Positions 7,153 to 32,444 of a stretch of DNA of 37,148 nucleotides are shown piece after piece. The DNA is from Candidatus Hydrothermarchaeota archaeon (GTDB taxonomy: Archaea; CAYFZR01), in contig JBHIEG010000019.1 in the NCBI GenBank assembly GCA_046760505.1, positions 1-37,148 of the forward strand. Reading direction: 5' to 3'. The position numbers and the translations under genes are program-made. The notes beneath the pieces were generated by a model that did not search any database, was not told the origin of the DNA, and saw only the letters and a program-made list of their open reading frames with translations. Within the stretch, counting starts at the first letter, position 1, and each line of letters opens with the position of its first letter.

Positions 7153-7746
7153 GTGATTATCATGAAAGTGGATCTCCATGTTCATACGACAAAAGGCTCG
7201 CCCTGTTCAAAGTTAACGCCAAAAGAACTTGTCCTAAGAGCCAGAGAACTTGGACTGGATGGAGTGTGTATAACTGAGCATGGTAACTTTAATGGAAAGA
7301 AGATAAGAAGTTCTGACCAAGATTTGATCATATTGTACGGTGTGGAGATAAGAAGTAACCAAGGAGACTTCTTAGTCTATGGATTAGAGGATAGCATACC
7401 CTTTGGAGATGCCCAAACAGTTATAGATGAATGCAAAGGCATGGGATGTGCTATATTCGTGGCCCATCCTTACAGGTTCTCGGTACCCAGCCTTGGAGAT
7501 CTCATATACGAACTAAAGGACTACGACGGAATAGAAGTTCTAAATGGGAATGCAACTAAAGATCAAAATTTTTCCGCTAAAAAAGCACAAAAAGACCTGA
7601 AATGTAAGGGTATAGGCGGAAGCGATGCTCATGACAAAAAAAAGATCGCTAAATACGTTACTGTTTTTGAAAACGAAATAAAAAACGAGGATGACCTAGT
7701 AACCGAGTTGATTAAAGGAAAATATTATCCAAAGCCATTTTTTTAA
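7153..7746 (+). CDS. PHP-domain metal-dependent phosphoesterase
   Basis: DLHVHT, ITEH, GVEI, AHPYR, IEVLNG, GGSDAH. Confidence 0.92.
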   Translation: MIIMKVDLHVHTTKGSPCSKLTPKELVLRARELGLDGVCITEHGNFNGKKIRSSDQDLIILYGVEIRSNQGDFLVYGLEDSIPFGDAQTVIDECKGMGCAIFVAHPYRFSVPSLGDLIYELKDYDGIEVLNGNATKDQNFSAKKAQKDLKCKGIGGSDAHDKKKIAKYVTVFENEIKNEDDLVTELIKGKYYPKPFF

Positions 7747-8594
7747 TGAATCCCTTCAATAATATTTTTAAGGAAGTAATAACCTTTCTTTGCCCTTAAT
7801 CCACCATTTACGTGTCCATTCAAGATTTCGGGTATTACAGAGATGTTCCTCTCTAAATCTTTAATTTTTGAGAAAAATTCCTCAAAATTCACCTCTCCTG
7901 TATTTGGCATGAGTCCTTCATTGCTTAAGCCTCTTGCATCCGATGCATGGATATGAACTATCCACTTTTTCAGTTCTTCAACGTAACTTATCAGATCTTT
8001 GTTCTCATAATTACAGTGCAATTTAGCATGCGATATATCAAAGGTAAGATAGAATTCATGGAGCTCGGTTATCACATTCATGTCCTCCGCATTTAAAATG
8101 AAATTCCCCTGCCAAAGTTCATTGTTCCACATCCTGTATAAATTTGGTAGATTCTCCAGTGTCATAATCACTTCATTCGTGCTAAAAAACGATATTGATT
8201 CTAAAAAATTTTTTATAAGGATTCGTTTATCAATTTTTTCATTATAAATCCCTCCAGGATGTATTACAATTAAAACATTGGATGAAAATAATTTTGACAA
8301 TCTTTCCCCGATTTTTATTGTCCTTTGAACTAAGAAGATACTTTTTTCCTTTATCCGTTCGTTTTCAGAGGAAAGATCAACTAAGACGCCTTTGTGGATG
8401 TACTCTGGTACATGAACCGCTAAAACATCTATGTTATAGTTAATGACTTTTTTTAAACGAGATAATTGTTTTTCAAAGAACTCGGTCAAGTCTTCTGAAT
8501 TCTGATGTAGTTCCACAACCTGAGGCTTTATTTTTAAGTATTCGTCTATATCTCCCGGTCTCCAATGAACCTTAAACCCGAGTAAGAACTCCAT
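7743..8594 (-). CDS. Sugar-phosphate isomerase/epimerase / AP-endonuclease-2 family TIM-barrel protein
   Basis: VHVP, VIHPG, LENL, FDISH, HIHASD, EGL-x-P-x-x-G-E-V-N-F. Confidence 0.85.
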   Translation of the reverse strand: MEFLLGFKVHWRPGDIDEYLKIKPQVVELHQNSEDLTEFFEKQLSRLKKVINYNIDVLAVHVPEYIHKGVLVDLSSENERIKEKSIFLVQRTIKIGERLSKLFSSNVLIVIHPGGIYNEKIDKRILIKNFLESISFFSTNEVIMTLENLPNLYRMWNNELWQGNFILNAEDMNVITELHEFYLTFDISHAKLHCNYENKDLISYVEELKKWIVHIHASDARGLSNEGLMPNTGEVNFEEFFSKIKDLERNISVIPEILNGHVNGGLRAKKGYYFLKNIIEGIH

Positions 8595-8644
8595 GCATAG
8601 TTGTTATAAAAAAGTTTATTTATCTTTTGAGCCTGAGTTAAAAC

Positions 8645-9547
8645 ATGAACAGAATTACAAAAATAATCATAGCAACAAGCGTTTTTATCCTAATAATCCT
8701 ATTATCCCTCAGCGCGATTATAGTATCTAAGCAAAATCCAATCTTCCAAGAATCTATTGTGATAATACCGATAGAAGGTACCATATCAACCTCCTCCTCA
8801 CAATCTTTATTCGCTTCAGTCGCAAGCGATGAAAAGATAGTAAAAGAGATAGAGAAAGCAAATAAAGATCGAAACATCAAGGCGATTATACTCTCCATAA
8901 ACAGCGGAGGAGGCTCAGCTGTGGCGAGTGCTGAAATAGAAAGAGCCATTAAAAGAAGTGAAAAGCCTACAGTTGCTTTAATAAGAGATGTTTGTGCTTC
9001 AGGTGCTTACTGGATTGCGTCCGCAAGCGATAAGATTGTTGCAGATCCTAACTCAATAGTCGGGAGTATTGGAGTAATCTACATTCATCCAGATTATTCA
9101 AGGCTTTTCAATGAAACGTTGAAGATGCGATATGAGATAGTGAAAGGAGGGGAATACAAAGATATGTCCTTACCTTTTAGATCTATGACTGAAGAAGAGA
9201 AAGAGATGTGGGAATCCATGGTACAGGGGATCTATGATAATTTCATTGAGACTGTTGCAAAAAATAGGAAAATGGATGAATCTGTAGTAAGAGAAATAGC
9301 CGAAGGCAAGTTGTACTCGGGTGAGCAAGCGAAAGAAATCGGATTGGTAGATGAACTAGGTGGAGAGAAAGAGGCTATAGAAATAGCCAAAAAGCTTGGT
9401 AATATCAAGGGAAAACCTTACATTAAGCGTGTGGGTAAGAGGACTCCCTTGGAGGTATTTTTAGGTGCATTCGCCTATTATCTAGGATTGGGAATTGGAG
9501 ACAGTATCCTCAATCACAATATCGATTTTAACCGCTTTATCGTTTGA
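8645..9547 (+). CDS. sppA: Signal peptide peptidase SppA (36K type, peptidase S49)
   Basis: N-terminal TM, INSGGGS, CASGAYWIASASD, GSIGV, GEYKD, GLVDELG. Confidence 0.94.
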   Translation: MNRITKIIIATSVFILIILLSLSAIIVSKQNPIFQESIVIIPIEGTISTSSSQSLFASVASDEKIVKEIEKANKDRNIKAIILSINSGGGSAVASAEIERAIKRSEKPTVALIRDVCASGAYWIASASDKIVADPNSIVGSIGVIYIHPDYSRLFNETLKMRYEIVKGGEYKDMSLPFRSMTEEEKEMWESMVQGIYDNFIETVAKNRKMDESVVREIAEGKLYSGEQAKEIGLVDELGGEKEAIEIAKKLGNIKGKPYIKRVGKRTPLEVFLGAFAYYLGLGIGDSILNHNIDFNRFIV

Positions 9548-14864: not shown

Positions 14865-15899
14865 ATGGCGAGAAAAGATCGATTTATCAATGCATGCTGG
14901 CAAGAACAAGTAGACTGTACGCCAGTATGGATTATGCGCCAGTCAGGAAGATATTTGAAAGAATATCGGGATATACGCAAAAAATACTCATTTATGACTA
15001 TGTGCAAAACGCCGTCATTGGCTACTACCCTCACCCTGCTCCCTGTTTATAAAATCGAGGTTGATGCAGCGATCCTATTTTCCGATATACTCATCCCTCT
15101 TGAGGCAATGGGAGTTGAAATAAGATTTATCGACGGAAAGGGTCCAGTTATACTGAATCCAGTTCGAAAAAGCGAGGATTTAGACTCCTTAAGGATTATT
15201 GATGCCCAACAAGATGTACCCTTTGTAATTGAAACCATAAAGTTAGTTCTGAACAAATTAGATGGAGAAGTGCCTCTAATAGGATTTTCAGGGGCTCCAT
15301 TTACGCTCGCAAGTTATCTGGTGGAAGGCGGTTCGTCTCGCCACTATCTAAAGATAAAAAGTATGATGTACAATGACCCTGTAACCTATGAAACCATGAT
15401 GGATAAAGTAGTGGAGACGATAATATCCTATTTAAACGCCCAGATTAAAGCAGGAGTGCAAGCAATTCAAATTTTTGATTCCTGGATAGGTTGCTTTTCT
15501 CCGCAAGATTATGAGAAGTACGTGATGCCTTACACTAAGAGAGTCATTGAAGGTTTGGAGAGAGATGATGTGCCAGTAATCCATTTTGCAACGGGAAGTG
15601 CCACGCTCCTTGAGTTCATGAAAAAAGCTGGCGGCGAAGTCATAGGCATAGATTGGCGAATAAACATAGATGATGCATGGAAGATTATAGGCTACGACAA
15701 GGCAATCCAAGGAAATCTAGATCCGGCGGTCCTCTTTGCATCTAAGGATGAAGTAGAAGAAAGGGTGAGAGACATATTAATGCGCGTAAACAACAGACCG
15801 GGACATATTTTCAATCTAGGTCATGGAGTCCTTCCTAAAACGCCAGTAGAAAACGTTATCACCATGGTTAGAGCAGTTCATAAGTATAGCGCTAGGTAG
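14865..15899 (+). CDS. hemE: Uroporphyrinogen decarboxylase (bacterial type)
   Basis: PVWIMRQSGRYL, DAAILFSDIL, IGFSGAPFTLASY, QIFDSW, QGNLDP, IFNLGHG. Confidence 0.95.
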   Translation: MARKDRFINACWQEQVDCTPVWIMRQSGRYLKEYRDIRKKYSFMTMCKTPSLATTLTLLPVYKIEVDAAILFSDILIPLEAMGVEIRFIDGKGPVILNPVRKSEDLDSLRIIDAQQDVPFVIETIKLVLNKLDGEVPLIGFSGAPFTLASYLVEGGSSRHYLKIKSMMYNDPVTYETMMDKVVETIISYLNAQIKAGVQAIQIFDSWIGCFSPQDYEKYVMPYTKRVIEGLERDDVPVIHFATGSATLLEFMKKAGGEVIGIDWRINIDDAWKIIGYDKAIQGNLDPAVLFASKDEVEERVRDILMRVNNRPGHIFNLGHGVLPKTPVENVITMVRAVHKYSAR

Positions 15900-15914
15900 C
15901 GATAGATTATATTA

Positions 15915-16871
15915 GTGAGGAAAAAAATGAAAAAGGACAAGAAAAATACGATAGCTGTTCTCTTACTGGGCTTTGGTGCACCAGATTCTCCCCTAGCGAT
16001 AGAGCCCTTCTTGAGAAATGTTTTTTCTCATGCAAAGGTTGAAATTACTGATGAAAAAATCAGAGAAACACATCGAAAATACGAATTAATTGGTGGCAGT
16101 TCTCCTCTTCTTAAAATCACAAGAGAACAAGCCTCATTGCTCGAGAAAAAACTTAATTCTGAGGGTGGAAATTTCAAGGTTTATATAGGCATGCGTTACT
16201 GGCACCCTTTTATTCATGAAACTGTAAAGGAAATCATCAACGACGAAATCACCAATATCATTGCCTTAAGTTTATCTCCTTTTTATTCGAAAATAACGAC
16301 TGGGTCAAACATAAGAGAACTAAAAAGAGTTCTTTCAAAATATGAAAAAGAGATTAAAATCACCTACATAGATAGCTGGTACGACAACCGATCTTATCTT
16401 AATGCTCTATCTGAAAAACTAAGGGAAGGATTATCTCTATTTCCGGAGGATAGGCGCAGTAATGTTCAGGTAATATTCAGTGCTCATAGCCTACCAAAAA
16501 AAGTGATTGAAGAAGGAGATCCATATTTAAGACAACTGGAAACCACTATTAAAGAAATTATTAAGCAAACAGGTCCTATTTCATGGCATCTCTCCTTTCA
16601 AAGTCGAGGCGCTTCCGGAGAATGGCTAGAACCCGAAACCGACGTATTAATCGAAAAACTCGCTGAAAAAAATTGCAGAGAAATTTTATTGGTTCCAATA
16701 AGTTTCATATCTGATAACATAGAAATATTGTACGATATTGATATAGTTTTTCAAAAATTGGCAGAATCTAGGGGAATTACACTTTGTAGAACCTCGTGCT
16801 TCAACTCTTCACCAGAATTCATCGATGTTCTCCATAATGTGGTGATTGAGCATATTGATAGAAATAGGTGA
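15915..16871 (+). CDS. hemH: Ferrochelatase (HemH/CpfC family)
   Basis: AVLLLGFGAP, IGGSSPL, GMRYWHP, FSAHSLP, FQSR, WLEP, PISFISDNIEILYDID. Confidence 0.94.
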   Translation: MRKKMKKDKKNTIAVLLLGFGAPDSPLAIEPFLRNVFSHAKVEITDEKIRETHRKYELIGGSSPLLKITREQASLLEKKLNSEGGNFKVYIGMRYWHPFIHETVKEIINDEITNIIALSLSPFYSKITTGSNIRELKRVLSKYEKEIKITYIDSWYDNRSYLNALSEKLREGLSLFPEDRRSNVQVIFSAHSLPKKVIEEGDPYLRQLETTIKEIIKQTGPISWHLSFQSRGASGEWLEPETDVLIEKLAEKNCREILLVPISFISDNIEILYDIDIVFQKLAESRGITLCRTSCFNSSPEFIDVLHNVVIEHIDRNR

Positions 16872-16880
16872 TACGTTCAG

Positions 16881-18308
16881 ATGAAAAATATGAGGAAGGT
16901 AATCATTATCGGCGCGGGTATCACTGGCTTATCAACCGCGTATTATCTCCAAGAAAAAGCTGGAGATGAAATTGACTTTATTATTCTAGAAAAAAGAGAT
17001 CGACCTGGGGGCGTAATAGTAACAGAAAGGATTGATGGTTTTATAATAGAAGGAGGTCCTGATACATTTGTAAGCGAAAAACCTTGGACAGTAAAGCTCA
17101 GCAAAGAATTAGGCATCGAAGATCGACTTCTTAACAGTAACGAAGATATTAGAAAGACTTTTATTTTTTCCGATGGAAAGCTCAGAGAATTGCCCGAAGG
17201 AATCATGATGATGGTTCCGATAAAAGTAATCCCATTCCTTAAAAGTGATCTGATATCATGGCCAGGCAAAATTCGCGCCTGCTTAGATCTCTTTTTGCCA
17301 AGAAAAAACTATGAAGATGAAAGCCTTGAAAGTTTTGTCAAAAGACGTCTTGGTAAAGAAATCCTCGAAAAAATAGCTGAACCTCTTATAGCAGGAATTC
17401 ACGCATGCGAACCTGAGAATATGAGTCTTAAGAGTACATTTCCAAGATTTATAGAATATGAGAAGAACTATGGAAGTCTTATAAGAGGAATGCTTGCTGC
17501 AAAGAAAGAAATGGAAACTTGGAAGAATAACAAATCAGAGAAAAAATTGACATTCTTCATGTCCTTTAAAGGCGGAATGCAAGAACTCGTCGATGCTCTG
17601 GTCTCTGCATTAGCCAAAAATATCTTTTTGAATAAAAAGGTGACCCGGGTCGATAAAATAGAAACTTCTGAGACAATCAAATACCTTGTGCATGTCGAAG
17701 GAAACTCTCCAATTTTAGCAGACGCTGTTGTTTTTACGACGCCCTCTTACATAACTGCTAAAATTCTGGGCGAACTTGATAAATCTCTGGCAAATAAACT
17801 CAACGAAATAACATGGGTTTCTTCTGCGACAATATCTCTGGGGTACAAGAAATCTGATATAAACCATCCGCTCAAAGGATTTGGATTTGTTGTACCCAGA
17901 GTTGAGAATCGAAAAATCAAGGCAGTGAGCTGGAATACTTCAAAATTCAATTACAGAGCACCAGAAGGACATGTCCTGCTTAGATGTTTTATTGGAGGTC
18001 CTAGAAAAGAGGATTACGTTGATCTTGATGATGAATCTCTGATAAAACTTGCTAGAGAAGAGTTAAAAGAAATTATGGGCATAGATGCTGAACCCGTTAT
18101 AACCAGAGTATACCGATGGAAAAAAGAAATGCCCCAGTACAAAGTTGGTCATAGCGAAAGGGTCAAGGCAATCGAGGAGATGTCAAGCAAGCATCCAGGA
18201 CTATACATTACGGGAAGTTCATATTATGGAGTTGGAATAGGTGATTGCATTCGATGCGGAGAATTAACCGCTGAAAAAATTATAGAACAGTTTAAAAAAT
18301 CCCTGTAA
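16881..18308 (+). CDS. hemY: Flavin-dependent (co/proto)porphyrinogen oxidase, HemY/CgoX family
   Basis: IIGAGITGL, EGGPD, EPLIAGIHA, GFGFVVP, MPQYKVGH, GVGIGDCI. Confidence 0.94.
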   Translation: MKNMRKVIIIGAGITGLSTAYYLQEKAGDEIDFIILEKRDRPGGVIVTERIDGFIIEGGPDTFVSEKPWTVKLSKELGIEDRLLNSNEDIRKTFIFSDGKLRELPEGIMMMVPIKVIPFLKSDLISWPGKIRACLDLFLPRKNYEDESLESFVKRRLGKEILEKIAEPLIAGIHACEPENMSLKSTFPRFIEYEKNYGSLIRGMLAAKKEMETWKNNKSEKKLTFFMSFKGGMQELVDALVSALAKNIFLNKKVTRVDKIETSETIKYLVHVEGNSPILADAVVFTTPSYITAKILGELDKSLANKLNEITWVSSATISLGYKKSDINHPLKGFGFVVPRVENRKIKAVSWNTSKFNYRAPEGHVLLRCFIGGPRKEDYVDLDDESLIKLAREELKEIMGIDAEPVITRVYRWKKEMPQYKVGHSERVKAIEEMSSKHPGLYITGSSYYGVGIGDCIRCGELTAEKIIEQFKKSL

Positions 18309-18434
18309 CATTTTTGTCATCATTTATTATTATGAACACCGAAATTTATTTATAAATTTTCAGTTTCTTTAGTTAGCAGCATGCTATGGTTTATCATAGC
18401 ACGTTCTGAAAAAAAAGGTGAGGAGGTGTAAGGA

Positions 18435-25678: not shown

Positions 25679-26773
25679 ATGGTGACAGCGTTTGTAGGGC
25701 TTCCCTGTCAGATTCAAGCGTTGAAAAAGGCTAATATCATGTTAAATAAGTTCAAGGATACTTTTTCAATTGGACTCTTCTGCAGGGAAAACTGGTGCTA
25801 CTCTTGCATGCGCGCGTTAGTGGAAGGAGACCATGGCATAGACCTCAGTTCTGTTAAAAAGTTCGAGATAAAAGGAAACAGTATGCTAATAAGCTATAAC
25901 AGAGAGGTAATTGAGATACCACTATCCGAATCAAGGCCATATGTAAGATTATGCTGCCAAGTTTGCTTAGATTTTTCTTCTGAACTTTCAGACGTTTCCG
26001 TAGGATCATTAGGCTCGCCTAACGGCTGGTCAACCCTTATTCTACGAACAGACTATGGAATTAAAATAGTGGAGGGCGCAAAAAAAGAGGGTTACATCGA
26101 AGTAAGATCAATAAAAGATTCCGGAATCAGATCAATACGTAATATATCCCGAGAAAAAAAGGAAGAAAGTCTAAAAGAGGCTAAAGTGATGGAAAAGAGT
26201 GGAATAAATGTTCCTCACATCCTTACGAAGGATGATATAGATCTGGAAGATTTTAAATACTATTCTAAAGATAAAAATTTTTCTGATTTGGAATTTAATG
26301 TCGTAGATAATGGCTTCTGCGTTTCATGCGGTACATGCGCTGCTATTTGCCCATATGACGTCCTCGAATTGCCCAATGAAAGACCTCGTTTATTAAAAGC
26401 ATGTCCAAGTGGATGCAACCTTTGTTATCTCGCTTGTCCAAGAACCTCTTTCCAGATACCTGCAATAGAAGAGAAAATTGAATTTGCCTCTAGAATCAGG
26501 GATGAAGACCTTGGTTATTATGCAAAAATCCTAGCAGCAAGAACCAAGGTTAGTTCCATTAAAGGACAGGACGGCGGCGTAGTGACCTCTCTCTTAATGT
26601 ATGCTTTAGACTCAGGGCTGATAGAAAGTGCAGTTACCGTAACTCATGGAGACATGCCTTGGAAACCAAAGGCTACAATCGTAAAAAATAAGATAGAACT
26701 GCTCAAAACTTCTGGAAGTATTTACTCGGTGTCCACTACAATGCAGAGTTTAAGAGACTCTTTTATTAAATAA
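25679..26773 (+). CDS. FrhB/FdhB-family (F420-interacting) flavo-iron-sulfur protein with circularly permuted domain order
   Basis: Starts with C-domain motifs (VGLPCQ, IGLFC, CxxCxDF, DVSVGSLGSP-x-GWS), then a 2x[4Fe-4S] ferredoxin (from aa 214), then the N-domain (QDGGVVT at aa 297, GSIY). Confidence 0.88.
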   Translation: MVTAFVGLPCQIQALKKANIMLNKFKDTFSIGLFCRENWCYSCMRALVEGDHGIDLSSVKKFEIKGNSMLISYNREVIEIPLSESRPYVRLCCQVCLDFSSELSDVSVGSLGSPNGWSTLILRTDYGIKIVEGAKKEGYIEVRSIKDSGIRSIRNISREKKEESLKEAKVMEKSGINVPHILTKDDIDLEDFKYYSKDKNFSDLEFNVVDNGFCVSCGTCAAICPYDVLELPNERPRLLKACPSGCNLCYLACPRTSFQIPAIEEKIEFASRIRDEDLGYYAKILAARTKVSSIKGQDGGVVTSLLMYALDSGLIESAVTVTHGDMPWKPKATIVKNKIELLKTSGSIYSVSTTMQSLRDSFIK

Positions 26774-26975
26774 GTAGATAGATTGTGCTTTTTGGTTAAA
26801 TCTCATTTCAAGAGGGTTATGTTAACTATCTTTCAACACATAAATTCTAAAATAAATATAAATTTAATGTAAAATTAATAGAGAAAACAGCAAGATATTT
26901 ATGAATTTAATCACAAACTATTTTTAAGAGATTGTTAATACAATCTCAAAAAAAACAAAATTTAAAAAGGAGGTT

Positions 26976-27305
26976 GTGGCCTTGGGAGAAGAATGGTGGA
27001 AAATTCCAAGTCCAAGTTTCACATTCCTAGTCGCTTTATTAGTTGGCTTACTCGGAGGAAAATTATTTACCAGCCTTACGGCAGCAACAATCAGCATTCC
27101 TCTGAGCGTAAGTACAAATATTCATGGTCTCGTATTTAAGACGGTTATACTTTTTGTATACGGTGCTCTTTTCGTTTTCCTATTTGGAGGTCATGAAAAA
27201 GAGGAAATATACTTGTTTATAAGAAACTTAAAGCCAACGATCCTTCACGGAGCAATATTAGGTATCGTTCCAATAATCGTGCCTGTCATCATTGGTCTGC
27301 TTTAA
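26976..27305 (+). CDS. Small hypothetical membrane protein (about 3 TM)
   Basis: RBS AGGAGGT before GTG; hydrophobic segments; 27 bp upstream of the Rieske gene. Confidence 0.75.
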   Translation: MALGEEWWKIPSPSFTFLVALLVGLLGGKLFTSLTAATISIPLSVSTNIHGLVFKTVILFVYGALFVFLFGGHEKEEIYLFIRNLKPTILHGAILGIVPIIVPVIIGLL

Positions 27306-27332
27306 CGCCTACAAAATTCAGGGAGGAATTAC

Positions 27333-27818
27333 ATGGCTAGAAAAGGGATAACCCGAAGATACTTCCTGTATTTACTTGGAGGCGGTGCCATTGCATCGTA
27401 TGCAATGGCTTTTACGGGTGCTTTAATAAAATTTGCTTGGTCACCAAAGTTACGAGCAACGGCATCCCAAAGTGAAGTTGAAATTGCAAAATCTGGAGAA
27501 ATTCCGGTAGGTGAAGCAAAGCTTTTCAAGTTCCAGGGTAAGCCCTCTATACTCATCCATCTAAGCGATGGCTATTATGCATTTGGAGCAGTTTGCACGC
27601 ATCTTGGCTGTGTTGCCAAATGGAAAGATCTGGAAAACAACGAGGTCATATACTGTCCGTGCCACATAGGAAAAATAGACCCAAGAACTGGAGAGGTTCT
27701 TGCAGGTCCAATACCAAGCCCATATCCTAAAATAATTATCGAAGAAAAGGAAGGGGCTATATTCGCCAAGGGATGGAAAGATCCCGAGTACGTTAAATCG
27801 CTCCCCATGTATGCATAA
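27333..27818 (+). CDS. Rieske [2Fe-2S] protein with Tat signal/anchor (QcrA/PetC-like)
   Basis: TRRYFL twin-arginine motif, TM helix, CTHLGC and CPCH boxes, GP-x-P-x-P; RBS GGAGG. Confidence 0.93.
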   Translation: MARKGITRRYFLYLLGGGAIASYAMAFTGALIKFAWSPKLRATASQSEVEIAKSGEIPVGEAKLFKFQGKPSILIHLSDGYYAFGAVCTHLGCVAKWKDLENNEVIYCPCHIGKIDPRTGEVLAGPIPSPYPKIIIEEKEGAIFAKGWKDPEYVKSLPMYA

Positions 27819-27944
27819 ACCAAACCTTTTTATTTTTTTAAATCTTAAAGTATTTTGAAATAATCGTAAAAAATATCTCAATTTTGGTTCAAAAAAAGAA
27901 AAATTGATAGTATAAGAGATAGAAATTAGTTATTGGGAATTGAA

Positions 27945-28049
27945 ATGGCAATAAATGGGAAATATTTTGTTCTTGGCTTAGCAGGATTGGCAATGGTAAC
28001 GTACGCCCTTGCTTTAACAGGCATCCTCATAAGATTTCTGTTTACCTGA
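27945..28049 (+). CDS. 34-aa single-TM microprotein paralogous to the Rieske anchor helix (not in ORF track)
   Basis: Hand translation MAINGKYFVLGLAGLAMVTYALALTGILIRFLFT; 13/26 ungapped identities to the Rieske N-terminal anchor; followed by a T-rich tract. Confidence 0.7.
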   Translation: MAINGKYFVLGLAGLAMVTYALALTGILIRFLFT

Positions 28050-28089
28050 AAGAGTCAATTTAAATTTATTTTATTTTTTATCAATCTTT

Positions 28090-28362
28090 TTAACTCGTTC
28101 TTGTTTTGTTAAATAGTTCCTCCCCATCTTCTGTTAATCTATAAAACTTAATTCTCTTAAAATCTGATTCAACCTCTTCTATCAGTCCTTCTCTCTTTAA
28201 AAGTTCTATTTCATACTTTACGGTACCCCATTGCATGCCTATTCTGTTAGAAATCTGGTTTATATTTAATAGGCCATAATCTGAGTTTTTCAAGGCCCTC
28301 AAAATATTGATTCTTGTCGACCCACCTCCGCTTATAAGAAGTGTCAATTTTGACTTGGTCAA
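28090..28362 (-). CDS. Winged-helix (ArsR-like) transcriptional regulator, paralog 1
   Basis: GG-x-TR-x-x-IL-x-AL, NQIS...WGTVKYEIELLKREGLIEEV, YRLTEDG. Confidence 0.88.
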   Translation of the reverse strand: MTKSKLTLLISGGGSTRINILRALKNSDYGLLNINQISNRIGMQWGTVKYEIELLKREGLIEEVESDFKRIKFYRLTEDGEELFNKTRTS

Positions 28363-28488
28363 ATCGACTCCCCCATCACATCTTGTATAAATTGTAATTA
28401 ATTTTAATACAATTTCACACTCATTTTATATAAATTTTGTTATTACAAATTTTACAAGTTTAATTAGGGCATGTATAAAAGATTTTTA

Positions 28489-28575
28489 ATAAGCGAGTTA
28501 TAATGGAGCTTCTTTTATTATAAGCGGCTTATATTTTTTCTTAAAAATAAAAAAAGTCAAATATAACAAAGTTAT
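28489..28575. promoter_or_regulatory. Three copies of a 13-bp ATAA-N5-TTAT palindrome (candidate operator)
   Basis: ATAAGCGAGTTAT (28489), ATAAGCGGCTTAT (28520, extends to TATAAGC-G-GCTTATA), ATAACAAAGTTAT (28563). Confidence 0.55.
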
Positions 28576-28586
28576 TTTTGTGATGT

Positions 28587-28751
28587 ATGAAAAAGAAACG
28601 CTGTGCGGTGTGTGGCGAAGTGGTCGGAAGAAGAACTGGTACCCACTATGCCAATAGGCTCATTCATAAGCGATGTGTGGGCATGGCTATCATAATTCAG
28701 AAGTGTCAAATGACAAGAAAAGGTGATCTTACTCTCACGTATACGTTATAA
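28587..28751 (+). CDS. 54-aa CxxC-x17-HxxC zinc-finger microprotein (not in ORF track)
   Basis: Hand translation MKKKRCAVCGEVVGRRTGTHYANRLIHKRCVGMAIIIQKCQMTRKGDLTLTYTL; a GC-richer stretch within an AT-rich spacer. Confidence 0.65.
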   Translation: MKKKRCAVCGEVVGRRTGTHYANRLIHKRCVGMAIIIQKCQMTRKGDLTLTYTL

Positions 28752-28808
28752 GACCTGATACCATCACACATCATTCAACAATGTCTATGAATCCAAAATA
28801 AAACTCAT

Positions 28809-29084
28809 TCAGGAAGTTGAGGTCTTTTTCAGCAATTGCTTACAGTTTTCTGTTAATCGATAGAACTTAGTTCTCTTATGATCTGTTTTCACTTCTTCTA
28901 TCAGTCCTTCCCTCTTTAAAAGTTCTATTTCATACTTTACAGTGCCCCACTCCATGCCTATTCTGTTAGAAATCTGGTTTGTATTCAGTAGACCGAATTC
29001 CGAATTGTTTAGTGCCTTAAGTATCTTCAATCGGGTCTCTCCACCTCTACTCAGAAGGACTATTTTTGATCTGATGTGATCCAA
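28809..29084 (-). CDS. Winged-helix (ArsR-like) transcriptional regulator, paralog 2
   Basis: SRGGETR, identical WGTVKYEIELLKREGLIEEV core. Confidence 0.88.
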   Translation of the reverse strand: MDHIRSKIVLLSRGGETRLKILKALNNSEFGLLNTNQISNRIGMEWGTVKYEIELLKREGLIEEVKTDHKRTKFYRLTENCKQLLKKTSTS

Positions 29085-29249
29085 TGTCTCTCCCCTTATT
29101 TTTATATTTGTTCAAAATAACTTATCGATTATTTTTATTTATAGATTTATTTTATGAATGATTAGTTTAGAGCCATTTCAGGTTCTTTTTAAGAATTTTT
29201 AAGTTAGTTGATCTACTTTGAAGGCATTTTTTATCGCTATTAATGAGTA

Positions 29250-29639
29250 TCAATCAACCTTGGATAAGATTGAATGGAAATTACAGGTATTACACCTCTG
29301 TACGCATATTTCAGCATGAATTTTGCAAAATTCTTCGCTTGATCTGATTATTTCACACACTTCGCAAATTTTAGACAGGGAAATCATTGGATCAAACTTC
29401 TCACTCATTATATTTTCTTCAATTTCATGGATAAGATTTAGGACCTCTTCTTTTTTTGCAATTTCAGTCCAAAATGCATGTTTTCCACTCATATAGTGAC
29501 ATATGGCTGGTTGTGTGACTCCTAATTTCTCAGATACTTCATTTTGTGACATCCCGTATTTTTGAATCAAGTCTCTTGTTATTATAGACCTTATGGTAGG
29601 AAGCACCTTCTTTACAACAATTTCACACGGAGGTCTCAT
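29250..29639 (-). CDS. Archaeal HTH transcriptional regulator with PPCE N-terminus and Cys/His-rich C-terminus
   Basis: MRPPCE...LPTIR, SQNEVSEKLGVTQPAICHY HTH, CxxC...CxxH...CxxxCxxC; RBS GGAGGT. Confidence 0.88.
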   Translation of the reverse strand: MRPPCEIVVKKVLPTIRSIITRDLIQKYGMSQNEVSEKLGVTQPAICHYMSGKHAFWTEIAKKEEVLNLIHEIEENIMSEKFDPMISLSKICEVCEIIRSSEEFCKIHAEICVQRCNTCNFHSILSKVD

Positions 29640-29815
29640 ACCCTACCTCCATTTTTGTATATATTTTAACAATAAATTGTAATAAAAAATTTTATTATAT
29701 AATTTTGTTAGAGAATTTTAACAATAAAAGGGTTTAGTTTTTTAGGAATAATTTTAAAATGATTTTAAATTCTTTTTTCACTTTTTCAGAATTTAATAGA
29801 CGTAAAAGTCAGGCA

Positions 29816-29959
29816 TTAAATGCCTTGCATTTTCCTTATACTTCCAAGACCTTTGACTAATGTAGGGCCGGAACATTCCGGACATGGAGCATTTCGGAGT
29901 AACAAACTACCTGCGGATTGACTGAATTCATATCCGCATCTTTTACATTGAAATATCAA
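29816..29959 (-). CDS. 47-aa zinc-ribbon microprotein (not in ORF track)
   Basis: Hand translation MIFQCKRCGYEFSQSAGSLLLRNAPCPECSGPTLVKGLGSIRKMQGI (TTG start, RBS AGGTG); CxxCG-x-x-F...CPxC. Confidence 0.75.
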   Translation of the reverse strand: MIFQCKRCGYEFSQSAGSLLLRNAPCPECSGPTLVKGLGSIRKMQGI

Positions 29960-30184
29960 ATTCCACACCTTTGATTTATTTATTAAACAACAAATTGTAG
30001 TAAATTTTAATAAGATTTTAGAACGTATATAGGTTTAGTTTATTTTAAATGAGTTTAGATGATTTTTTTAATTATTTTAGAATTTTTAACAATTCAAAAA
30101 GTATTTTTCAACTCAGAAAAAAATCAAAATAATCTTCTTTTCCTTTTAAATTGTATTATTTTTTTTAAATTTTTTAAAAAACTG

Positions 30185-30233
30185 ATAACAGAGTTATAAA
30201 AGAAATAATAAAGTTATAGGAAAGCTTATAAAC
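30185..30233 (+). promoter_or_regulatory. Two ATAA-N5-TTAT palindromes followed by a BRE/TATA-like element
   Basis: ATAACAGAGTTAT (30185), ATAATAAAGTTAT (30205), then GGAAAG-CTTATAAA about 27-40 bp before the ORF at 30260. Confidence 0.55.
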
Positions 30234-30259
30234 TAGAATCTCCATAATTCTGGTAGTGA

Positions 30260-30628
30260 GTGGATAAATTGCCAAGTACTTCAGGTGAACATTTGGAGTT
30301 AAGGAAGTTGCTGAAAACCACAGGAGAATACCCTGAGAAGCCAAACAAAGAGAACTTCTGTTCAGTATATCTCATAACAGGAGAAATCATACATGGCCAG
30401 ATTGACAGCGAGAGTGAGTACCCTTATATCCATGTGACAACGCCCGAGAAAATTTATTTCATTCATGATAATTCCATCATAAAGATAGAGATGCCGACGG
30501 ATGAGCATCTGGATGAATACAAGAAAGAAATAGAAAACATGGATAAAGAAGAAAATGGTTCTCAAGGTAAAGAAGATACAGACAAAGAGAATAAAGAACC
30601 TTTCCGACCAGAACTCATATTCGAGTAA
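30260..30628 (+). CDS. Hypothetical protein with probable Sm/Hfq-like fold and acidic tail
   Basis: CSVYLITGEIIHGQIDS resembles the Hfq Sm1 motif; FIHDNSIIKIE sits in the Sm2 position; D/E-rich C-terminus. Confidence 0.6.
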   Translation: MDKLPSTSGEHLELRKLLKTTGEYPEKPNKENFCSVYLITGEIIHGQIDSESEYPYIHVTTPEKIYFIHDNSIIKIEMPTDEHLDEYKKEIENMDKEENGSQGKEDTDKENKEPFRPELIFE

Positions 30629-30715
30629 TACAAATTCCCACGGATGTAAAATTTTTTGATTGATATGAGTCTCAAGTAAACTAAATTATTTGACAAGACG
30701 AATCACTGATTTAGG

Positions 30716-30988
30716 TTAATCTGATATTCTTTTGGATAATTCCTTCCCTATATCTGTCAACGTGTAAAATTTGGTTCGGTGGTGTGATTCAACCTCTTCT
30801 ATCAGTCCTTCTCTCTTTAAAAGTTCTATTTCATACTTTACGGTACCCCACTCCATGCCTATCTTGTTAGAAATCTGGTTTGTATTCAGTAGACCGAATT
30901 CCGAATTGTTTAGTGCCTTAAGTATTTTGGCTCGGGTCTCTCCACCTCTGCTCACGAGAAGAATTACCTTGGGTCTTATCGGATCCAT
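30716..30988 (-). CDS. Winged-helix (ArsR-like) transcriptional regulator, paralog 3
   Basis: SRGGETR, identical WGTVKYEIELLKREGLIEEV core, YTLTDIG. Confidence 0.88.
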   Translation of the reverse strand: MDPIRPKVILLVSRGGETRAKILKALNNSEFGLLNTNQISNKIGMEWGTVKYEIELLKREGLIEEVESHHRTKFYTLTDIGKELSKRISD

Positions 30989-31218
30989 AACATTCCCCCA
31001 ATTGCGATTGTTGCGAAAATTTTACAACAATTCGTTATGATTTCAACATATTTTATCGATTAATTTCTATTTATAGGTTCATTTTATAAATGGTGAGTTG
31101 TAAACGTTTTTTTATCAATTACAAAACTTTTTTATATTATTTTCAGAAAAATTTCCCAAAACCCGGTTATACAAAAACTAACTGACAAAGAATATGCACA
31201 AATTTTGCGTGATCAATC

Positions 31219-31371
31219 TTATTTACTGGCAAGTTCTTCTAAAACTTCTCTTGGCAATTTTTTCGCTATATCTATCTTCTTGGGACACTTTCCCAACTTT
31301 ATATTTCTTTCTTTCGCTGCCTGCTTAAGATCTGCCATCTTAACATTTTTTATCAGTTTCTCAATATCCAT
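31219..31371 (-). CDS. 50-aa basic helical microprotein (not in ORF track)
   Basis: Hand translation MDIEKLIKNVKMADLKQAAKERNIKLGKCPKKIDIAKKLPREVLEELASK; strong RBS GGAGGT 6 nt before ATG. Confidence 0.8.
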   Translation of the reverse strand: MDIEKLIKNVKMADLKQAAKERNIKLGKCPKKIDIAKKLPREVLEELASK

Positions 31372-31460
31372 TTGTAAACCTCCAATCTTGTCAAATCTTG
31401 TAAGTCAAATCTTATAAACAATTTTCAATATTAAAATCTTGAGTCTCTCATATTAGGTTT

Positions 31461-32444
31461 CTAGTATAAGGATCTAGAGATTATCGGAACCAAAGCCATT
31501 AAAACACACTGTTCAGTCAAAGAAAGACGATCTGTTATTCCCTTAGAAAGAAAACCTATGGCTCCTTCTTTTTCTCCAATTTTATTTATACCTGATACTT
31601 TTTCCATAATCTCTTCCATCTCTTTACCATTCAAAATCTCATCGATAACTCTTTTGGGTACCTCAAACCCAGGACTGCTGCCCACAAATACCTTGCCTTC
31701 CTTGTCTATTATGGCACACCACTGAACATCAACGTAACCTGTGCTCGCATGAGGATTTTTTGTTAACCCGGCTTCTATTCCAACACCAAAATCAGCACCA
31801 GTCTTGTTTAACGCTTCTTTTCCTCTCTTTATTGCATTTATCAATATCTCATCGTTAAAGGGTTGAAGCGGAGTATCAACCCTGCAAGAGATAATTTCCA
31901 CATTTTCAAATACTCTTTTAAAAATTTTTCTGGTTGCTTCTATTTTCACGGGATTTTTTGAGCCTACCGCAACTTTTATTTTGTTGTTTCTGTCAAGAAT
32001 TATGTTGCCTTTCTCATCTATCTCGCCCTTCCTTATTCTGGTAGTGGATATTGGATTTCCATTTTTTGCCTTTACCATTCCAACTTTTATAATTTCCAAA
32101 GGTTTAAGCCCTCTTTCTGCCCTAACCCTGTTTACCTTAACTCCTTCCATATATGTTTCCTCAGAAACTATTAAGACGTCAAAATCACCTCCTTTAGTTA
32201 ATTTAAGTGGATCTTTTAATTCAATGATTTCATATTTACCGGAATACCCTTTATGGTCCAAAAATTTCTCTAGATTCTTTTTTCTTTCATTATAATTATG
32301 GATTAAATGGTTTTTTTCTATTAACTCATCGGCTAACAGGCCTATTGTCAAAAAATCTCCCACTTCAAATGCCTTATTAAATAATTTTTCATGTCCTAGA
32401 TGAATTATATCAAATGTGCCTCCAATAACGACTTTTTTCATCAT
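31461..32444 (-). CDS. coaD: Fusion: archaeal phosphopantetheine adenylyltransferase (CoaD) + non-canonical purine NTPase (YjjX-type inosine/xanthosine triphosphatase)
   Basis: N-half GGTFDIIHLGH, VSEET, ISTTRIRKGEID; C-half VGSKNPVKIEA, QPF, GIEAG, GAIGFLS, R-x-x-L...MAL. Confidence 0.88.
   Translation of the reverse strand: MMKKVVIGGTFDIIHLGHEKLFNKAFEVGDFLTIGLLADELIEKNHLIHNYNERKKNLEKFLDHKGYSGKYEIIELKDPLKLTKGGDFDVLIVSEETYMEGVKVNRVRAERGLKPLEIIKVGMVKAKNGNPISTTRIRKGEIDEKGNIILDRNNKIKVAVGSKNPVKIEATRKIFKRVFENVEIISCRVDTPLQPFNDEILINAIKRGKEALNKTGADFGVGIEAGLTKNPHASTGYVDVQWCAIIDKEGKVFVGSSPGFEVPKRVIDEILNGKEMEEIMEKVSGINKIGEKEGAIGFLSKGITDRLSLTEQCVLMALVPIISRSLY

Follow-up and report, generated by a model that had tools for sequence, protein, structure and literature searches.

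Is a run of very small genes in a Candidatus Hydrothermarchaeota archaeon one regulatory system, or is it a row of separate genes that share a neighborhood? The DNA analyzed (hereafter the window) was the whole of contig C19, 37,148 nt long, from an archaeal assembly of 2.17 Mb in 142 contigs with a GC content of 0.38. Between a gene for an FrhB-like protein (25679-26773) and a coaD/NTPase fusion gene (31461-32444), it holds 11 small open reading frames (ORFs) of 38-161 amino acids (aa), here called the island. An earlier interpretation, the sequence-only reading, had named their products as a membrane protein, a Rieske protein, a peptide mimicking the Rieske anchor, three winged helix-turn-helix (wHTH) paralogs, a Cys-rich helix-turn-helix (HTH) regulator, two Zn-finger microproteins, an Sm/Hfq-like protein and a basic 50-aa protein, and had joined them in one multi-layer circuit around the Rieske protein. 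We favor, with moderate confidence, another reading: the small genes are promoted separately and sit in a chromosomal cluster that is conserved within the genus and was shaped by local duplication, and that is not a demonstrated single system. This reading is carried by the presence of the genes, their synteny in one congener (G001), purifying selection, the pattern of paralogy and conserved palindromes.

According to the favored reading, the left end of the island would be an operon for a membrane protein with three transmembrane stretches and a twin-arginine (Tat)-exported Rieske Fe-S protein, followed by a truncated copy of the Rieske gene that keeps only the anchor. The remaining block would consist of transcription-factor genes, largely derived from local duplication. 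Among them, a lineage-specific family of 90-aa ArsR-like winged-helix proteins would have split into two subtypes (A/D and B/C), each paralog acting on its own promoter as an autorepressor, and the 129-aa HTH protein would be a duplicate of a regulator associated with sulfur transfer, and would probably bind a metal or an Fe-S center.

A conserved region of small genes

The 4687 nt from 26774 to 31460 contain no ORF of at least 165 aa, and rank first among the 1343 such gaps in the assembly; the runner-up internal gap in the whole assembly measures 2810 nt. The small-gene cluster is genuine, and it is the extreme small-gene region of this genome: as had been claimed, no gene between the FrhB-like gene and coaD exceeds 161 aa, and all 11 ORFs lie where they had been placed.

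Comparison with G001 speaks to whether these ORFs are genes. Positions 26843-31154 are collinear with contig C6 of G001, where 10 of the 11 island ORFs occur in the same order; the synteny check proposed with the sequence-only reading thus found the island genes linked in the single available relative. Synonymous sites are near saturation between the two genomes (pS 0.42-0.78) and non-synonymous sites have changed little (pN 0.03-0.16), giving a dN/dS of 0.01-0.25 in 8 of the 10 ORFs; synonymous sites are saturated in the other two. One-sided Fisher tests, in which synonymous were set against non-synonymous differences between the two genomes, are given in Table 1. The peptide ORFs contain no or few indels, and the adjoining spacers contain many. 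A Shine-Dalgarno-like GGAGG or GGGGGA can be read directly ahead of most island starts, and three starts (those of the membrane protein, the anchor peptide and the orphan protein) were corrected from G001. Ten small genes, peptides of 34-54 aa included, look like genuine constrained genes. Among the proposed microproteins, the anchor peptide (pep38), zn54 and zn50 evolve like coding sequence, but the basic 50-aa ORF, although present as described, has no match in G001 at E ≤ 1, and the G001 DNA downstream of coaD differs.

Table 1. Genes and putative control elements of the island, with their comparison to G001 (Fisher p, one-sided).
Feature	Position	Strand	Description	Identity to G001	dN/dS	Fisher p
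Rieske operon promoter palindrome	26928..26947	.	20 nt, 8-nt arms, 4-nt spacer, ATTGT/ACAAT core
Small membrane protein	26976..27305	+	109 aa as listed; likely start TTG 26982 (107 aa), GGAGGT at 26969-26974	87%	0.13	5e-12
Rieske [2Fe-2S] protein	27333..27818	+	161 aa; twin-arginine N-terminus, hydrophobic anchor	86%
Probable anchor-only Rieske paralog (pep38)	27933..28049	+	38 aa from TTG, or 34 aa from ATG 27945 (start kept in G001)		0.25	1e-3
wHTH A	28090..28362	-	90 aa, A/D subtype; HTH_24 22.3 bits, HTH_5 22.0 bits	82%	pN 0.10 vs pS 0.78
wHTH A operator-like palindrome	28389..28415	.	ATTGTA-N11-TACAAT core, ~10 nt downstream of TATA-like box
zn54 Cys/His microprotein	28587..28751	+	54 aa, CxxC ... 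H ... HxxC	80%	0.13	2e-6
wHTH B	28809..29084	-	91 aa, B/C subtype; HTH_5 25.6 bits	95% (matrix), 93% (tblastn)	0.01
wHTH B promoter block	29111..29167	.	TATA-like box and TTATCGATTA, common to wHTH C
Cys-rich HTH regulator	29250..29639	-	129 aa; N-terminal MRPPCE, then CxxC, CxxH, CxxC			5e-9
zn50 zinc-ribbon-like microprotein	29816..29968	-	50 aa, CxxC ... CxxC	81%	0.09	4e-9
Orphan protein	30260..30628	+	122 aa as listed; likely start TTG 30269 (119 aa) as in G001		0.09	3e-18
wHTH C	30716..30988	-	90 aa, B/C subtype; HTH_5 24.2 bits	92%	0.02
wHTH C upstream region	31007..31099	.	ATTGT-N15-ACAAT palindrome 31007-31031 in leader; shared block 31042-31099
50-aa Lys-rich ORF	31219..31371	-	preceded by strong GGAGGT; known only from this species

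Both borders of the island differ between the two species. On the left, the FrhB-like gene is absent at this place in G001, which has instead a 116-aa ORF without a family on the other strand. On the right, wHTH C is followed by a further wHTH gene (D) and UbiA in G001, and here by the 50-aa ORF and coaD. The FrhB-like protein itself is permuted, with FrhB_FdhB_C at residues 4-147, then a 4Fe-4S dicluster and FrhB_FdhB_N at 285-358. In G001, a short opposite-strand ORF downstream of coaD (C42, 1-247), rubredoxin-like by eye with two CxxC pairs, takes the place of the 50-aa Lys-rich ORF.

Spacer conservation does not set the island apart. Its spacers are 0-80% identical to those of G001, and three control spacers elsewhere in the window are 79% (with a conserved palindrome), 49% and 24% identical; intergenic conservation was rejected as a peculiarity of the island because the controls reach similar identity and conserved promoter blocks occur outside it too. 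The control with 79% identity is the spacer at 18309-18434, which precedes the substrate-binding protein gene of an ABC transporter of the branched-chain amino-acid type; its conserved palindrome reads AGCATGCTATG ... CATAGCAC.

Could part of the block be of foreign origin? Archaeal plasmids and viruses are rich in tiny wHTH and zinc-ribbon genes, and the right-hand part of the island (wHTH, HTH, Zn-ribbon microproteins and orphans) might be the domesticated remnant of such an integrated element; the confinement of the wHTH family, the membrane protein and the 122-aa protein to the two congeners, the weak hits that the wHTH and HTH proteins give with phage regulators in PHROG, and the differing borders would all fit. 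Base composition does not. The spacers of the island, earlier described as AT-rich, are so indeed (27-291 nt long, GC 0.227, 36% of the stretch), but the coding GC of its 11 ORFs is 0.385, compared with 0.396 in the window's 27 large ORFs and 0.382 genome-wide, which rules out a compositional island; the low GC of the stretch is due to low coding density and AT-rich spacers, not to foreign DNA. Profile scans, which covered the 11 ORFs of the island together with 3 flanking and 26 larger ORFs of the window, found no integrase or transposase, in agreement with the sequence-only reading, and no replication or capsid gene, and a tRNA search found none. Inverted repeats in the region are AT-rich only, 72-94% complementary, and none convincingly brackets the block, which is older than the split of the two species; no wHTH relative occurs in the viral contig collection. 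We regard a mobile origin of the right-hand part as very unlikely.

Other scans were likewise sparse. Searched against Rfam, the window gave no match that reached gathering score, and 26700-31500 gave none even at E ≤ 1. Matches to PADLOC models were limited to the wHTH/HTH parts of Csa3/CARF, CasR and candidate PDC models; none went beyond generic HTH, and 7 of the 11 island proteins had no match.

Four sequencing runs, all DNA and all from one study, contain the stretch, and three more runs from the same samples contain almost none of it. Logan contigs of the four runs break within the wHTH repeats and confirm the segments, though not their order across the repeats; that order comes from the two species' original assemblies, which are consistent with one another. 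Contigs from two of the four runs vary at 30647-30729, in the spacer that separates the orphan gene from wHTH C: 29 nt are deleted at 30684, one nucleotide is inserted at 30647, and four bases are substituted. These differences are strain variation, and the same spacer is unalignable with that of G001.

The winged-helix paralogs and their promoters

The three wHTH proteins of the island are 66-80% identical to one another, and are paralogs as had been stated. A fourth copy, wHTH D, is 82% identical to A and lies on contig C4, flanked on one side by a polyferredoxin/HdrA pair and on the other by a UbiA-type gene, with the wHTH D/UbiA pair at 7690-9036. In the G001 lineage, wHTH C is directly followed by wHTH D and UbiA; its C16 ends in sequence with which its C6 begins, and a metagenome contig of independent origin spans the junction. 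A local array was probably the origin of the family, and D would have been separated from it by a rearrangement in this species. The breakpoint that separates the wHTH D/UbiA pair is located at the paralog array. In a tree of eight sequences, the clades A/D and B/C had support of 100/99, and the B and C orthologs paired across species. A and D were not resolved from each other in this tree, which is compatible with gene conversion. The putative recognition helix is near-invariant in all eight sequences, and its first varying position is Q in A/D (MQWG) and E in B/C (MEWG).

The promoter elements follow the same two clades. The 23-nt core of the wHTH A palindrome recurs, identical, upstream of wHTH D on C4, and the genome holds these two copies and one unrelated match. 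In G001 the palindrome is kept for A, and kept with two changes for D, and the flanks have diverged: a footprint over four promoters. Upstream of B, the promoter block is 84% identical to that of C at 31042-31099 (direct repeats D4 and D9) and near-invariant in G001, where the region upstream of C is conserved to ~31154. The element type, palindrome in A/D and TTATCGATTA block in B/C, co-varies with the Q/E change in the helix. The operator-like palindromes inside the island are putative, recognized from their sequence. Most likely, each wHTH represses its own promoter, and its specificity would have diverged together with the operator.

As proteins, the wHTH paralogs are distant from known families. 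They are generic winged-helix proteins, whose HTH_5 scores are at or just above the Pfam cut-off of 22, as the HTH_24 score is for its own cut-off, and whose scores for NCBIfam NF033788 are 19.6-24.3 bits against 55. They resemble the wHTH part of Csa3/CARF models; sequence matches in the PDB had E values of 0.007-0.05, with PH1932 and HlyU as the nearest solved structures. None of the 47 invariant columns of the eight sequences holds Cys or His, and therefore an ArsR-type metal site is not evident. Relatives beyond the two congeners were not found: a search of 5.8 billion proteins returned four, all from the congeners, and scans of 185,579 species genomes and of viral contigs returned two loci, both of G001, and none, respectively.

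Small size, several paralogs and the extreme conservation of B and C (dN/dS 0.01-0.02) would also suit abundant chromatin or nucleoid-type proteins like Sso10a and Lrs14, with the palindromes as ordinary promoter features. The Sso10a/Lrs14 families do appear among the NCBIfam rows, but far below their cut-offs (17.8-21.5 bits against 60, and 14.1 against 90), and promoter elements that co-vary by subtype with the Q/E change fit specific recognition. We hold a chromatin role to be extremely improbable.

The Rieske end, the Cys-rich regulator and the case for one module

Rieske proteins bind their cluster through boxes of the consensus CxHxGC and CxCH. The island protein has CTHLGC and CPCH, both kept in G001, and scores 41.9 bits with PF00355 against a cut-off of 20.3; its earlier label is secure. 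The top NCBIfam rows are Rieske subunits of b6f/bc1 complexes, at 52.9 against 250 bits (NF045928) and 52.5 against 97.4 (TIGR01416). Because the membrane-protein gene ends only 27 nt before the Rieske gene, the two probably form one operon. The membrane protein, labeled as such earlier, has three hydrophobic stretches by eye, which we read as transmembrane, and no Pfam or NCBIfam family; the search of 5.8 billion proteins found only two members, both of 107 aa, and no relatives outside the two congeners. A candidate paralog on C35 (30% identity, E 0.002) was dismissed, since the match falls within unrelated larger ORFs.

The genome contains two Rieske genes, the island copy and a paralog on C101 (76% identity), neither beside cytochrome b; the Rieske paralogs have other neighbors and lack the island entourage. 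The one cytochrome b locus in the genome, on C23 (PF13631, 157.7 bits), encodes a b6-like protein of 233 aa, a subunit-IV-like protein of 148 aa, a membrane protein of 86 aa and a CxxCH protein of 104 aa, with no adjoining Rieske gene, and a search of the genome for another cytochrome b found none. The nearest outside Rieske gene (in G019, 49% identity) lies directly upstream of cytochrome b. From the single cytochrome b locus without a Rieske gene, the location of the Rieske genes elsewhere and the adjacency in G019, we infer that the subunits of one Rieske/cytochrome b complex are encoded at dispersed loci, and that the island Rieske protein most likely works with the split cytochrome b6/subunit-IV and monoheme-c products of C23.

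G001 has a second compact cluster, on its C7, with genes for a diheme-type CxxCH protein, a 77-aa membrane protein, a 184-aa Rieske protein and cytochrome b, and on its C84 two tandem Rieske genes followed by one for a 54-aa membrane peptide with a Cys/His-rich tail. Within the window, three adjacent genes at 14865-18308 encode URO-D (HemE), ferrochelatase (HemH) and a HemY-type flavin amine-oxidase, which are late heme steps of the bacterial type. The sirohaem route is the usual late heme route in archaea. The HemE/HemH/HemY-type genes fit the presence of cytochrome b and c genes in this genome.

The small peptide gene that follows the Rieske gene matches Rieske residues 5-39 with 42% identity (E 2e-4, tblastn against the genome), in line with the anchor-mimic label. 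It has GK or EK at the position of the Rieske RR; the twin arginines are gone. Compared with G001, its 117 nt contain no indel, and the flanking spacers have 20-30 gapped columns each. By its sequence, the 34-38-aa peptide appears to be an anchor-only Rieske paralog that has lost the Tat motif.

The Cys-rich regulator belongs to a wider family. Its HTH_3 domain (PF01381) scores 23.7 bits against a cut-off of 23, PF01381 is precomputed for two relatives, and the Cys/His set for which it was first labeled is conserved: across 69 aligned sequences, C5, C92 and C95 are invariant, and C105, H108, C116 and C119 are conserved in at least 90%. The AF2 model is all-helical (pLDDT 81), and of it only the HTH part resembles solved structures; for the helical Cys domain at the C-terminus there was no clear counterpart, as Foldseek gave no match at E ≤ 0.001 and VIA-align reached Z ≤ 7.2 over the HTH part only. 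The protein probably binds a metal or an Fe-S center through C5, the two CxxC pairs and CxxH.

Two paralogs are encoded in the genome, on C4 (2249-2614, 50% identity) and C100 (34%), and the C4 copy adjoins genes for ThiI and a PP-loop ATPase. A metagenome scan yielded 292 relatives, of which 80 were kept, and 42 loci with usable flanks were picked. Neighbor counts refer to the 27 loci with a same-strand downstream gene; several are near-duplicates from related samples, so that the counts overstate independence. The downstream gene was ThiI-type in 9 of the 27, PUA-domain in 8, asparagine-synthase-like in 3 and glutamine synthetase in 2; a class-V aminotransferase, Thi4, an integrase, an FMN oxidoreductase and an unnamed gene occurred once each. 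Eleven more hand-picked neighbors (nine upstream, two downstream of one copy) included two ThiF, three hexapeptide transferases and one SepSecS/aminotransferase-like protein. Cysteine-desulfurase-like genes were also seen near the metagenome loci. Other island proteins were present in 2 of the 80 loci, both G001-like. Because the C4 paralog and the metagenome copies lie beside ThiI/sulfur-transfer genes, the island copy is best read as a lineage-specific displaced duplicate of a widespread family that otherwise keeps such company, and the ~128-aa MRPPCE HTH family is a candidate sulfur-related regulator.

With these parts in hand, we can ask whether the island is a single module, in which the wHTH and HTH regulators, perhaps with the microproteins and the anchor peptide, govern how the Rieske protein is made or assembled as redox state or metals change. 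The block is collinear in G001, the anchor-only peptide is under constraint and the Cys-rich regulator has its conserved Cys/His set. However, relatives of that regulator were never beside Rieske genes in the metagenome loci kept, its C4 paralog and wHTH D lie elsewhere in the genome beside ThiI and HdrA, the Rieske paralogs have different neighbors, the wHTH proteins lack invariant Cys/His, and both borders have changed between the two species.

The promoters bear on the same question. The palindrome of the Rieske operon is conserved, with 19 of its 20 bases kept in G001 within a ~95% conserved block, and has the half-site of the wHTH A/D and C elements; in the form GATTGT..ACAATC it is unique in the genome. 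Yet the spacing between ATTGT and ACAAT differs among the three island palindromes (4, 13 and 15 nt). Of the six other palindromes of this type in non-ORF DNA of the genome, five lie by unrelated genes (for L7Ae, a HAD phosphatase, an AAA ATPase, a radical SAM protein, and a pair of unnamed ORFs by a PGK gene) and one between convergent gene ends; a related AATTGTA-N0-TACAATT site adjoins an MNT-HEPN pair. No such palindrome is visible by eye upstream of the cytochrome c/b operon. Enrichment of 8-mers shared among spacers relative to the whole genome was set aside as inflated by the AT-rich spacer composition, and the TAATACAAT site ahead of the orphan gene has no conserved counterpart in G001. 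We consider the single module unlikely. One multi-layer circuit around the Rieske protein is not supported: regulator and Rieske paralogs occur in other contexts, the borders differ, the wHTH proteins have no evident metal site, and the Sm/Hfq label on which its RNA-level layer would depend was not confirmed.

Several observations nevertheless weigh against a cluster of separately promoted genes. The island has been kept together, in the same order, despite near-saturated synonymous sites, which would be unexpected under pure chance co-location; the conserved synteny is a single comparison, in that the phylum is represented in the genome collection by this genome and G001. In 234 kb of non-ORF DNA, nine ATTGT-N4-16-ACAAT palindromes occur, and three of them lie in the 2.2 kb of the island, where 0.06 would be expected (Poisson p 3e-5, with the motif chosen post hoc). 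A regulatory link from the wHTH proteins to the Rieske gene through the palindrome of its operon promoter is possible. Finally, ATAAC-N3-GTTAT occurs at 28563-28575 (zn54) and at 30185-30197 (orphan), two of the 12 copies in the genome, and is invariant in G001; the two copies stand at unequal distances from the zn54 and orphan starts.

A more specific proposal would make the island a lineage-specific control unit for the dispersed Rieske/cytochrome b6 complex. In it, the wHTH proteins would recognize ATTGT/ACAAT palindromes, that of the Rieske promoter included, and the anchor-only paralog would occupy or guard the Rieske anchor site on cytochrome b. If true, the paralog would be a micropeptide that regulates the assembly of a respiratory complex. 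We judge this proposal quite unlikely, and return to the cluster of separately promoted genes as the favored reading.

Remaining small proteins and known systems

Of the two proposed Zn-finger microproteins, both keep their Cys/His ligand patterns in G001 (in zn50, both CxxC pairs), but family matches are at best below cut-off. The scores of zn50 are 23.5 bits for Zn_ribbon_8 against 34.4 and 20.8 for the FmdB-type family TIGR02605 against 31.3; zn54 has no match in Pfam or NCBIfam, and a feature score of 0.94 to unnamed clusters of ~55 aa in the Atlas is a lead only. A TATA-like box ~25 nt upstream suggests that the zn54 mRNA may be leaderless.

The orphan protein has a beta-rich core (approximately residues 33-77) and an acidic tail. 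Its suggested Sm/Hfq identity was not confirmed. Neither Pfam nor NCBIfam returned a row at E ≤ 0.1; the AF2 model, with five strands and then a helix, has a low pLDDT of 45; and the Atlas leads stay below the bar, among them an unnamed cluster at TM 0.52 that aligns through an Sm_like part. A search of 1.84 billion representatives turned up the G001 ortholog as the only true relative; a second match, to eight weak stretches of an 899-aa Ig-repeat protein, was treated as a repeat artefact.

The findings do not add up to a new kind of system. The main value of the analysis is annotation: ten small constrained genes in a phylum known from two genomes. Beyond that, the four wHTH paralogs, whose two promoter types change in step with a single helix residue, make a compact natural example of how regulator and operator diverge once duplicated; the MRPPCE family of Cys-rich HTH proteins, widespread and encoded beside ThiI/sulfur-transfer genes, appears unstudied; and the anchor-only Rieske paralog would be of bioenergetic interest if it binds the complex. 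A limited literature search on Hydrothermarchaeota Rieske genes and archaeal sulfur regulators found nothing on these genes, and gives no basis for a claim of novelty.

How, then, do the parts compare with known systems? The regulators recall several families. Like the ArsR/SmtB repressors PH1932 and HlyU, the island wHTH proteins have ~90 aa with HTH_5 at or just above its Pfam cut-off, and as in autorepressors of this type their palindromes overlap their own promoters; unlike them, they lack an evident metal site. The C-terminal wHTH part of Csa3 matches them, but they have no CARF domain. The Cys-rich regulator shares the HTH_3 domain with the XRE family and the Cys/His pattern with the archaeal "MRPPCE ... 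CxxC ... CxxC" family, from whose other members it differs as a 50%-identical duplicate outside the ThiI/PUA/sulfur-transfer setting.

At the other end, the Rieske protein resembles PetC/QcrA subunits in its domain, both boxes and twin-arginine anchor, and the genome has the split b6/subunit-IV and monoheme cytochrome c. It differs from them in scoring far below the equivalog cut-offs, in not lying beside cytochrome b, and in being paired with a protein of three transmembrane stretches and followed by an anchor-only paralog. PetG, PetL, PetM and PetN are small single-helix subunits of b6f complexes. The 34-38-aa peptide of the island is likewise one hydrophobic helix, encoded beside the Rieske gene, but its likeness is to the Rieske anchor, of which it appears to be a paralog, and not to any Pet subunit.

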